Shown here piece by piece: positions 18,334 through 20,553 of a DNA stretch of 51,192 nt (positions are counted from its first letter, which is position 1; each line of letters starts with the position of its first letter). Position numbers and translations under genes: made by a program. The notes under the pieces were generated by a model that searched no databases, was not told where the DNA came from, and saw nothing but the letters and a program-made list of their open reading frames with translations. The stretch is from an uncultured Burkholderiales bacterium (GTDB lineage Bacteria; Actinomycetota; Acidimicrobiia; IMCC26256; JAOSJL01): contig CAYRHS010000001.1 in NCBI GenBank assembly GCA_964424125.1, positions 1-51,192 of the forward strand. The letters are read 5' to 3'.

Positions 18334-18559
18334 CTCTTCCCTTTTTCGTCCGTGGATCGAAGCGTGAAGAGCGTAGGCCGGATGAAATTCGGGAGGCAAT
18401 TGGCCGCGCCACTACGACACAAAGGCGCAGGTTGCTTCACAGGTTCACGACCGACGATTCGACCGCCGGCGGGCCGGGGCTCGTGGGGGCCGACGGGGGG
18501 AACGACCCCGTCCGTCACCCCGGCCCGCCGTGTGGCGGTGACCTCTGGCCGCTCGCCCC

Positions 18560-18892
18560 TCAGGCGGAGCGAGCAGCCGCGATCGGGTCCTCGGGCTCCG
18601 GGGGCGCCACCTTGGGCGGGCGTCCCCGACGTCGCTTGTGGGCCAGCACCTTGCCGTTGGCGAAGAGCTCACCGCCCCAGACGCCCACGGGCTCGCGCCG
18701 CTCCTGCGCGGCCGCGAGGCACTGCTGGCGCACCGGGCACTCCTGGCAGAAGGCCTTGGCGGCCGCGATGTCCTGGAGCTCCTCGGAGAAGAACAGCGCT
18801 GTGAGCGAGCCGTCGCCGTCGCGGCAACGGGCGCGGGCCTGCCACGTCTCCCGGTACTGCTCCGAGGTGGTGAGGGTCTCGATGGCTGCCAT
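18560..18892 (-). CDS. whiB7: WhiB-family Fe-S transcription factor with C-terminal AT-hook (WhiB7/WblC type)
   Basis: 110 aa from ATG 18892. C-x25-C-x2-C-x5-C, GVWGG turn, KRRRGRPPK AT-hook. Leader uORF and terminator upstream. Confidence 0.85.
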   Translation of the reverse strand: MAAIETLTTSEQYRETWQARARCRDGDGSLTALFFSEELQDIAAAKAFCQECPVRQQCLAAAQERREPVGVWGGELFANGKVLAHKRRRGRPPKVAPPEPEDPIAAARSA

Positions 18893-18960
18893 CGGGCGCT
18901 GCTCCGTCTGTGCTGGTGGTCTGGTGGGCGGTCGTGGTGTTTCGGGGGTTGACGGGGACG

Positions 18961-18990
18961 AAAAAAGGCCGCCGGGGTGCCCCGGCGGCC
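18961..18990 (-). terminator. intrinsic terminator (attenuator) inside the whiB7-like leader
   Basis: Minus strand reads GGCCGCCGGGG-CA-CCCCGGCGGCC followed by TTTTTT. It lies about 70 nt upstream of the whiB ATG and about 30 nt downstream of the uORF stop. Confidence 0.75.
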
Positions 18991-19019
18991 TGGGTGGAGT
19001 GCTCCTGCGCTGGTGCTGG

Positions 19020-19181
19020 CTAGGAGCTGTCCTGGAGCCGCCGGGGCCGACCGGGCTTGTGGTCGGTGCCCACGAGGATGGTGGCGTTCGACCACGGAGC
19101 CGGCGTGTGGAAGACGAAGCTGCGGACGCGCGCGACGCCGGCCGGGCCATACATCGGTGCCATGGCGTGCCGGTCGGTCAT
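19020..19181 (-). CDS. candidate 53-codon leader peptide (uORF) of the whiB7-like gene
   Basis: AGAGGA sits 6 nt before ATG 19181. The stop is at 19020-19022. Its last codons contain CCCCGGCGGC (19046-19037), identical to the terminator 3' arm. Confidence 0.4.
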   Translation of the reverse strand: MTDRHAMAPMYGPAGVARVRSFVFHTPAPWSNATILVGTDHKPGRPRRLQDSS

Positions 19182-19350
19182 CGTCGGTCCTCTACAACCT
19201 GTCTTCCGCTGGACTCCGGGCCGTGCGGGATCACCCCGGGCGACTCGGGTTACAACGATGCAATCATGCCCGGCCTTCCCGGTCAAACAGATTAGTGCCC
19301 CGCCGGCCGGGAGCCCCGCTCGGGGGGCGGTCCCGTACGCTGATGCCGTC

Positions 19351-20553
19351 GTGACCACGCCCTCCCTGGACCCGGCCGCGCTCGCCGCGCTCCCCCGCGC
19401 CCTGCCCGCTCTGCTCGACGGCCAGCGGGGGGCCGACCTGCACCTCGGGGCCCAGTGCTACGTGTCGCTGGAGGGCCATCCGCTGGTCGACGCGGCCGTG
19501 GGCGATGCCGCACCGGGCCGCCCGCTGCGGGCCGACGACCTGATGCTCTGGTACTCGGCCGGCAAGGTGCTCACGGCGATTGCCGTGCTCCGGTTGTGGG
19601 AACGGGGACGTCTCGGGCTCGACGACCGCATCGGTCGCTACGTCCCCGACTGGGGTGGGGGCAAGGAGCGAGCCACTGTCCGCCACGTGCTCACCCACAC
19701 CGGCGGCTTCCGGATGTGGGGCGCGCACCTCTACGACGAGGACGTGTCGTTCGACGAGTCGCTGGCACGCATCGCCGCCCATCCGGCCGAATGGGAGCCG
19801 GGGACGAAGGCCGGCTACCACCCGTTCACGGGTTGGCTCGTCCTCGGCGCGGTCGTCGAGGCCGTGGACGGCCGCCGCATCGACCGCTTCGTGACCGAGG
19901 AGATCCTCGCCCCCCTCGGGCTCACGGAGTGCTTCCTGGGCGTCCCGTTGGCCGAACAGGAACGCCTCGGCGACCGCATCGTGCCCGTGCACTGGAAGGG
20001 CCACATGATGGTCAGGCACCGCGACGGCGAGCTCGCGTTCGTGCCGTACCGGATCGACTGGATCCACAACGAGCCGCGGCACGTCGCCAAGGTCGAGCCC
20101 GGCGGGAACGTTCGCGGCTCCGCGCGGGCGCTCGGGCGCGTCTACGAGTCGCTGCTGGGACACGGCCCGCCGCTGCTCGAGCCCCGCACCGTCGAGGTGC
20201 TGGGCGCCGTGCACCGTCGCGGCCTGCGCGACCGCACGTTCATGACCATCGTCCCCTGGGGGCTCGGCGTCGAGGTGGCCGAGGGGTTCGCGGGGGGCGT
20301 GGGGCGGCGCGTGTTCGGCCACGGGGGGATGATGTCCAGCGTCGGCTTCGCCGACCCCGATCTCGACCTCGTGGTCGTCGTGGTCACCAACGGCCTGCCC
20401 GGATTCCTCGAGCACGACCGACGCATGTTCGAGGCCACCGATCTCGTGTATCGGTCCCTCGGCGAGGACGCCCAGCTGGTCCGGCGGCCCGTCCGGACCC
20501 TTGCCGCCGAGTGGGGTTTCGCCAAGGGCACTCGCCGCCCGCCCGACGAGTGA
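19351..20553 (+). CDS. beta-lactamase-fold serine hydrolase
   Basis: Start set at in-frame GTG 19351, because the upstream part of the 498-aa track ORF overlaps the whiB leader. SxxK as YSAGKVLTAIAV. Lies divergent from the whiB7-like gene. Confidence 0.8.
   Translation: MTTPSLDPAALAALPRALPALLDGQRGADLHLGAQCYVSLEGHPLVDAAVGDAAPGRPLRADDLMLWYSAGKVLTAIAVLRLWERGRLGLDDRIGRYVPDWGGGKERATVRHVLTHTGGFRMWGAHLYDEDVSFDESLARIAAHPAEWEPGTKAGYHPFTGWLVLGAVVEAVDGRRIDRFVTEEILAPLGLTECFLGVPLAEQERLGDRIVPVHWKGHMMVRHRDGELAFVPYRIDWIHNEPRHVAKVEPGGNVRGSARALGRVYESLLGHGPPLLEPRTVEVLGAVHRRGLRDRTFMTIVPWGLGVEVAEGFAGGVGRRVFGHGGMMSSVGFADPDLDLVVVVVTNGLPGFLEHDRRMFEATDLVYRSLGEDAQLVRRPVRTLAAEWGFAKGTRRPPDE

Follow-up and report, generated by a model that had tools for sequence, protein, structure and literature searches.

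A whiB7/wblC-type gene of an Acidimicrobiia genome and its leader, a probable case of the uORF-dependent transcription attenuator of Mycobacterium and Streptomyces

Introduction

The closest described relative of the locus reported here is the attenuator in the 5′ leader of whiB7/wblC of Mycobacterium and Streptomyces (Burian and Thompson 2018; Lee, Lee and Roe 2022; and Poulton et al., PMC10274678). Riboregulation of whiB7/wblC through a uORF (upstream open reading frame) is cited here from Lee, Lee and Roe 2022 (Mol Microbiol 117:179) to the extent that PMC10274678 and PMC11550727 summarise it, and the mycobacterial uORF is described as a general sensor across amino acids (PMC10274678). We analysed a whiB7/wblC-type gene and its leader in a stretch of DNA of 51,192 nucleotides (nt), referred to below as the window (positions 1 to 51,192 of contig CAYRHS010000001.1, assembly GCA_964424125.1), from an uncultured bacterium of the class Acidimicrobiia. 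All leader and whiB elements are read on the minus strand. The locus is very probably the whiB7/wblC orthologue of a member of the Acidimicrobiales, under the known uORF-dependent transcription attenuator.

The locus resembles the Mycobacterium and Streptomyces attenuator in most of its parts. The same gene family lies downstream, and a Rho-independent terminator is placed between the uORF and whiB7. The uORF is long (83 codons in M. smegmatis, 53 here), variable in sequence, and encodes most amino acids. The 5′ strand of the antiterminator lies in the last uORF codons and includes an Arg-Arg stretch, and a putative autoregulated promoter has an AT-rich site adjoining the -35. The differences are that the host belongs to the Acidimicrobiia, that the uORF of the window shows no Ala enrichment (6 of 53 codons), that the -10 is of the TGn-TTGCCT/TTGCAT type instead of TANNNT, and that the terminator arm reads GGCCGCCGGGG here, GGCCACGGA in Mycobacterium-like loci and GGGCCGCGGA in Streptomyces-like loci. 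The present system is known from sequence.

Sequences and methods

The source genome is metagenome-assembled and comprises 3.1 Mb in 263 contigs. In public genomes, the nearest loci all belong to the Acidimicrobiia (Acidimicrobiales, Iamia, Microthrixaceae, Ilumatobacteraceae and others). Leaders were gathered from 29 genomes of the same order and from 80 further Acidimicrobiia loci, and the 97 distinct leaders obtained were aligned with MAFFT; the alignment was not fitted to any structure. Counts of leaders below refer to these 97 unless the nearer-family subset of 27 leaders is named, and protein columns were checked in 19 orthologues. For the phylum-wide comparison, 20 loci were fetched from a sample of the phylum, and the comparators among them were recognised by protein similarity to the WhiB7 structures in the PDB.

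Results

Terminator and antiterminator in the leader

The elements of the leader and the gene are as follows.

19193-19188, minus strand: Shine-Dalgarno sequence of the uORF, AGAGGA, 6 nt 5′ of ATG 19181 (direct reading; purine-rich, Shine-Dalgarno-like sites at the aligned position in orthologues)
19181-19020, minus strand: uORF of 53 codons followed by TAG (19022-19020), peptide MTDRHAMAPMYGPAGVARVRSFVFHTPAPWSNATILVGTDHKPGRPRRLQDSS (direct reading, frame test on 97 leaders)
19046-19037, minus strand: 5′ strand of the antiterminator, CCCCGGCGGC, uORF codons 46-49 (P R R L), pairing with the terminator 5′ arm at 18989-18980
19032-18996, minus strand: nested hairpin, flanked on one side by the antiterminator strand and on the other by the terminator 5′ arm, with the uORF TAG in its 5′ arm (folding)
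18991-18961, minus strand: intrinsic terminator, A-GGCCGCCGGG-GCAC-CCCGGCGGCC-U, then T6 at 18966-18961 (direct reading, folding, 97 leaders)
18905-18902, minus strand: Shine-Dalgarno sequence of whiB7, GGAG, 9 nt 5′ of the ATG (direct reading)
18892-18560, minus strand: whiB7/wblC-type gene of 110 amino acids, from ATG 18892 to TGA 18560 (Pfam, PDB match, orthologue columns)

A preliminary description of this DNA had proposed a 53-codon uORF preceded at 6 nt by AGAGGA, an 11-bp GC hairpin followed by six T residues, and a 10-nt repeat of the terminator 3′ arm in the end of the uORF that could act as an antiterminator. All of these elements stand at the coordinates it gave, the repeat being in codons 46-49. 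The hairpin, read as GGCCGCCGGGG-CA-CCCCGGCGGCC-T6 over 18990-18961, lies 29 nt past the uORF stop and 68 nt 5′ of the whiB ATG. Its position and its 11 pairs were borne out, and its composition is corrected to 10 G-C pairs plus a closing A-U pair around a 4-nt loop, GCAC, because a 2-nt loop cannot form. The free energy of this hairpin is -26.2 kcal/mol, and a scan of 18400-19500 for terminators returned one site against 0.3 expected from shuffles. Two other copies of the terminator motif in the genome were dismissed as chance, as they lie inside long open frames without T tracts. When Rfam was searched at a permissive threshold, the best score was 18.8 bits against a gathering threshold of 60 and covered the terminator stem only; no curated family covers the leader.

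The antiterminator strand CCCCGGCGGC is a 10-nt copy of the terminator 3′ arm. When the uORF region was shuffled 5000 times with its dinucleotides preserved, 0.9% of the shuffles contained a stretch of 10 nt or more perfectly complementary to the terminator 5′ arm. The leader was folded and the energies of the two states were compared, as the preliminary description had suggested. The minimum free energy fold of 19200-18950 is the antiterminator, in which the upstream repeat is paired with the terminator 5′ arm and a hairpin with the uORF stop is enclosed (z -2.85). Over 19052-18958 the best antiterminator and terminator folds have energies of -51.1 and -49.0 kcal/mol; the two folds are nearly isoenergetic, and therefore kinetics can decide between them. 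When pairing was forbidden at the bases that would be under a ribosome located on the last codons or on the stop, the terminator fold resulted.

In the predicted fold, the nested hairpin stacks under the antiterminator helix. The segment of 40-50 nt between the strand and the arm folds better than its dinucleotide shuffles in 93% of the leaders (mean z -2.8). The sequences of this hairpin vary from leader to leader (GUAGC/GCUAC, CUCCU/AGGAG and CCCUGG/CCAGGG, for example), and the stop codon is in its 5′ half. The antiterminator is thus one long, interrupted hairpin whose whole 5′ half consists of the last approximately nine codons and the stop.

Covariation of both helices across the Acidimicrobiia

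The same terminator motif was found in 71 of the 78 further Acidimicrobiia loci that had enough upstream sequence (80 were fetched). Across the 97 leaders the terminator is 99.1% paired, with compensatory change in 6 of its 10 pairs. The antiterminator is 82% paired and has 57 double-change cells, compared to 23.4 in shuffles and at most 25 in controls in which the strands were slid. Neither the terminator values nor the antiterminator count was reached by any of 500 shuffles, counts that are not probabilities, the leaders being related; the slid controls, which keep the relatedness and gave at most one double-change cell for the terminator, give the same picture.

The strand shared by the two helices provides the most telling result. 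The triple 19041/18985/18972 reads G, C, G in 46 leaders; in 31 others the antiterminator pair is A:U instead of G:C, the third base being G in 28 of these and A in 3. The neighbouring triple reads G, C, G in 77 leaders and A, U, A in 7. When C changes to U in the shared arm, the upstream strand follows from G to A and keeps a Watson-Crick pair, and the terminator 3′ arm mostly keeps its G and forms a wobble pair. This three-way pattern is the one expected if both helices are used. RNAalifold on 27 leaders returned the terminator alone; the antiterminator was tested as a named structure because RNAalifold reports only one structure. The recurrence of the arrangement with covariation in 97 distinct leaders is far beyond chance. 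Alignment of orthologous leaders, another check that had been suggested, therefore finds the repeat and the hairpin both conserved and covarying, and the proposed logic of uORF, terminator and antiterminator is upheld by folding and by compensatory changes in both helices.

The uORF and its peptide

The antiterminator strand is read in the same frame (CCC CGG CGG, P R R) in 92 of the 97 leaders. The uORF stop follows the strand after 17 nt in 70 leaders and after 14 nt in 15 (85 of 97), and it lies 25-32 nt before the terminator arm in 79. The median length of the uORF is 59 codons, and the alignment gaps in the coding part are multiples of three. The ratio of nonsynonymous to synonymous change (pN/pS) is 0.75 over 27 pairs, with 0.71 in the N-terminal part and 0.86 in the last 20 codons. 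Frame and end point are under selection, and the peptide barely is; peptide-level conservation as the main constraint was rejected on this ratio. A value near 0.75 is as might be expected for a frame that needs translation and whose product does not matter. The leader peptide, which had been presented as an unrecognised one, is thus conserved in frame, length and end; it is not specific to a family, and its sequence is nearly free. In summary, the leaders contain two helices that exclude each other and co-evolve, together with a translatable frame that is conserved and whose 3′ end is the 5′ half of the antiterminator.

The uORF of the window encodes 18 of the 20 amino acids, lacking Cys and Glu, a composition that would suit a general sensor. 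The uORF peptide has no match in Pfam. Of the motifs SWS, DHK and PRR, which are seen in the peptides of the nearer families, PRR coincides with the antiterminator strand, and SWS and DHK coincide with the arms of a possible hairpin; these conserved peptide "motifs" are largely RNA. The hairpin is the following.

19095-19059, minus strand: possible hairpin within the uORF, GUGGUCG (19095-19089) with CGACCAC (19065-19059), present in the minimum free energy fold

It is 77% paired in the 27 nearer leaders, with a covariation score above that of all 500 shuffles, and it is not conserved in the wider set of 97. In addition, the nearer families conserve a block centred on GCGCGCG (peptide A-R-A/V; 19125-19110, minus strand) approximately 16 codons from the uORF start, and some other classes show it too. 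A loose pattern for this block occurs in 62 of 87 uORFs, in mixed frames, against 46 expected from shuffles, a modest enrichment that is too weak to interpret.

The layout in other classes of the phylum

In 19 of the 20 loci of the phylum sample, a hairpin rich in G+C and followed by a T-rich stretch stands 40-190 nt upstream of whiB7; a strict T-run rule flags 11, and the rest have interrupted T tracts that were read by eye. In these 19 loci the uORF ends shortly before the hairpin, and its last codons repeat the 3′ arm. The sample includes Streptomyces-like and Mycobacterium-like WhiB7 genes, the latter very close to the WhiB7 in the PDB. The layout of uORF and hairpin is a property of WhiB7 genes in general, and the arm sequences depend on the clade.

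The WhiB7 protein

The gene had been assigned to the WhiB7/WblC subfamily by its four Cys residues, GVWGG turn and AT-hook, and protein comparisons uphold this assignment. The 110-residue product matches the Pfam family Whib (PF02467) with an E-value of 9e-18 (65 bits; cut-off 23.6). Its best solved relative in a PDB search is M. tuberculosis WhiB7 (7KIF/7KIM/7KUF, E 2e-19), and the other Wbl proteins found are weaker matches (WhiB1 7e-8, WhiB4 2e-6, WhiB 3e-6, WhiB3 6e-6). The alignment with WhiB7 extends across the AT-hook, where KRRRGRPPK (residues 86-94) is opposite HKRPRGRPRK of the M. tuberculosis protein. The ligands of the Fe-S cluster (Cys23, Cys49, Cys52 and Cys58), the GVWGG turn (residues 70-74) and the G-R-P core of the AT-hook are all invariant across the 19 orthologues. 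NCBIfam has no model that matches either this protein or the uORF peptide. Together, these comparisons support the reading of the gene product as a regulator of the WhiB7/WblC subfamily, probably of the antibiotic-stress type.

A WhiB7 orthologue is present in 37 of the 41 genomes of the same order that were searched. The source genome has six other Wbl genes, and the five of them found by protein search are at most 42% identical. Two adjacent WhiB7-like genes are found in one genome from another order of the Acidimicrobiia, and the upstream copy is without a recognisable terminator or uORF leader (L119, G130:C1:679150-680300).

The promoter

A putative promoter is found 5′ of the uORF.

19296-19258, minus strand: putative autoregulated promoter, ACTAATC (19296-19290), TGT, -35 TTGACC (19286-19281), 14 nt, TGA (19266-19264), -10 TTGCAT (19263-19258) (order-wide consensus)

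A consensus scanner found no canonical sigma-70 promoter here because the -10 TTGCAT has no A at position 2. The order-wide layout, taken from approximately 60 orthologous loci, is a TAAAT-like block, 2-4 nt, TTGACN, 14 nt, TGn and a TTGCCT-like hexamer. It is located 70-115 nt 5′ of the uORF in most of these loci, and the promoter of the window fits it exactly. The combination of AT-rich block and -35 occurs once in the 51-kb window. A genome-wide scan for the AT-rich block with TTGAC gave four matches, and only whiB7's own has a downstream gene. In promoters activated by WblC the motif lies 3 bp upstream of the -35 and the spacer is 16-19 (PMC7157823); the geometry seen here agrees with those promoters and with the mycobacterial whiB7 promoter (PMC3905903). 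The preliminary description had named ACTAATC and TTGACC, both of which are confirmed, and had considered the promoter call weak because of a poor -10. That was too cautious, as the poor -10 (TGn-TTGCCT) is itself conserved across the order. This order-wide conservation, the odd -10 included, supports the call of a putative promoter. No promoter-like site was found in 18960-18893, the gap between the terminator and whiB7.

Neighbouring genes

The divergent neighbour of the leader is the following gene.

19351-20553, plus strand: divergent serine hydrolase of the beta-lactamase fold (PF00144, 3.7e-59)

The fold had been recognised correctly in the preliminary description. The protein is closest to the LipE/LipL esterases rather than to class C beta-lactamase, and it is far under any beta-lactamase cut-off. 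Eight other loci, drawn from four or more of the numbered families, have the gene in the same divergent position. Its membership in the WhiB7 regulon, which had also been put forward, is an unsupported guess, and direct reading of its upstream sequence found no promoter geometry of the WhiB7 type (AT-rich block and -35); the genome-wide motif scan did not back this membership either. The gene starts with GTG at 19351, and a hexamer of the TANNNT type, TACGCT, is located 9 nt upstream (19336-19353, plus strand); a leaderless or nearly leaderless mRNA may be possible for it. On the 3′ side of whiB7, a gene at 18399-17923 (minus strand) encodes a Lys/Arg-rich protein of 158 amino acids that has no family match; it adjoins whiB7 in no other fetched locus.

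Discussion

Proposed mechanism

The switch itself is carried over by analogy from the published mycobacterial and Streptomyces work. Transcription would start near 19251, from a promoter with an AT-rich docking site for WhiB7 3 nt 5′ of the -35. In normal translation, the ribosome behind the polymerase would be in the last eight codons or at the stop by the time the polymerase releases the terminator 5′ arm. Both the antiterminator strand and the nested hairpin would then be inside the ribosome or melted by it, the terminator (hairpin 18991-18966 and T6) would form, and transcription would end at approximately 18961, 68 nt before whiB7. If the ribosome stalls earlier in the uORF, possibly because of translation inhibitors or because any one of the 18 encoded amino acids is scarce, the strand would be free and would capture the 5′ arm first. 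The resulting antiterminator (19046-19037 paired with 18989-18980 and stacked on the nested stop-codon hairpin) would allow read-through into whiB7. WhiB7 would then bind sigma region 4 and the AT-rich site, amplifying its own transcription.

Several observations weigh against this mechanism or against parts of it. The window has a gap of only 14 nt between strand and stop, and a ribosome waiting at the stop would reach no further than the 3′ edge of the strand; the masking is therefore dynamic, by kinetic coupling, and not static. It would take place during the decoding of codons 46-53 and through melting of the nested stop-codon hairpin. The earlier proposal that a ribosome at the uORF end masks the repeat holds to the extent that a masked end folds into the terminator, and it does not hold for a ribosome simply parked on the stop. 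A second point is that the 10-bp antiterminator has mismatches at its two outermost pairs in a large subgroup of approximately 40 of the 97 leaders; when read by eye, the pairing in this subgroup appears to continue into the 5′ flank of the arm instead. The triplet EPW of WhiB7, which contacts sigma region 4 and whose Glu is essential (PMC3905903), reads E67-P68-V69 here (18686-18694, minus strand), so that Glu and Pro are kept and Trp is replaced. EPW is present in most orthologues, and EPT, EPC, EPY or EPA is present in a few orthologues from Acidimicrobiia and other actinobacteria; in M. smegmatis the substitution W65Y is tolerated and activity is kept (PMC3905903). In the promoter, T replaces the canonical A at position 2 of the -10, which is preceded by an extended -10 TGn. 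Finally, the transcription start near 19251, autoregulation, premature 3′ ends, induction and translation of the uORF are all inferred.

Comparison with other attenuators

The E. coli trp, leu and his attenuators are similar in that the position of the leading ribosome chooses between exclusive hairpins that share one strand. Unlike these, the present leader has no run of codons for one regulatory amino acid, its antiterminator 5′ strand is within the coding region upstream of the stop and not downstream, and it is proposed to sense general translation stress and to control a transcription factor. In the leaders of ARE-ABCF and erm genes (vmlR, msrD, lmrC, are5sc/tiaA), drug-stalled uORF ribosomes likewise switch a terminator to an antiterminator (PMC9226507, PMC12421871). 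Those uORFs have 3-15 codons, and their stalling is drug- and peptide-specific; in contrast, the uORF described here is long, weakly constrained and presumably generic in its response.

Alternative readings

The uORF stop raises the question of which step of translation is sensed. The stop is located 14 or 17 nt past the antiterminator strand in 85 of the 97 leaders, and it is TAG in 52, TAA in 33 and TGA in 12 (26/18/10 by cluster at 80% WhiB7 identity), whereas the long open frames of the source genome use TGA in 76%, TAG in 22% and TAA in 1.8%. The last residue is Thr in 34 and Pro in 30 of the 97 leaders, compared to 5% and 8% genome-wide, and a C-terminal Pro reportedly slows release (Hayes, Bose and Sauer 2002). 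These features favour a reading in which the sensed step is termination and not elongation, so that the dwell time at the uORF stop (release by release factor 1 (RF1), then recycling) would set the choice between terminator and antiterminator. However, the stop is inside a conserved hairpin, and UAR and the preceding CG may be constraints of the RNA structure. The uORF of the window ends Ser-Ser-TAG and not in Pro or Thr, and Streptomyces-like leaders have UGA stops. In published mutagenesis, it is the amino-acid content along the uORF that sets the response (PMC10274678), which fits elongation sensing, and sensing of termination is not exclusive of it. As a replacement for elongation sensing, termination sensing is quite unlikely.

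A joint reading is that the leader measures dwell time at the uORF stop as well as elongation, because the stop keeps a constant distance of 14 or 17 nt from the antiterminator strand, is part of a conserved hairpin and shows a strong bias to UAG/UAA after a final Pro or Thr; a further part of it is that the promoter may depend strictly on WhiB7 owing to the order-wide -10 that has no A at position 2. We consider this combination unlikely and offer it as a speculation. If it is true, the intrinsic-resistance regulon would take direct input from RF1 activity or from ribosome recycling.

The leader could also act mainly after transcription, either through a terminated RNA of approximately 290 nt or the peptide acting in trans, or through uORF control of translation or of Rho-dependent polarity. 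There is a precedent in the trpL leader of Sinorhizobium, where the terminated RNA reportedly acts as a small RNA and the peptide in trans (PMC7298713, PMC7968998), and the leader described here is likewise long and structured (z -2.85). This reading is nevertheless highly improbable. The terminator is canonical and 99% paired, the whiB7 Shine-Dalgarno sequence lies 60 nt 3′ of the T tract and is in no conserved pairing seen here, the peptide sequence is not conserved, and Rfam gave no match. An action of this kind could exist besides the switch and would not replace it.

That the 53-codon frame is an independent small-protein gene with the hairpin as its own terminator, whiB7 having its own promoter in the 68-nt gap and the repeat being incidental, is hardly credible: the good Shine-Dalgarno sequence, the conserved length and the frequency of terminators after short genes would fit, but there is almost no constraint on the peptide (pN/pS 0.75), the repeat and the terminator 5′ arm covary, the unit stands 5′ of whiB7 across the phylum, and the conserved AT-rich promoter is 5′ of the uORF, with no promoter-like site in 18960-18893.

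Significance

The uORF-dependent attenuator proposed for this locus leaves the understanding of the mechanism unchanged; it is an already known kind of switch, in a new case that is well supported but ordinary. The alignment of 97 leaders provides unusually clean natural compensatory evidence for the antiterminator, for which the published evidence is mutagenesis in two genera, and it can serve as the seed of an RNA family missing from Rfam. It also defines which features are invariant, namely the shared strand, the reading frame, the distance to the stop and the nested hairpin with the stop, and which are free, namely the peptide sequence. The attenuator is not limited to the Actinomycetes in which it has been studied (Mycobacterium, Streptomyces and Rhodococcus) and has all its elements retained in the deep-branching Acidimicrobiia, so that its origin probably goes back to that of WhiB7.

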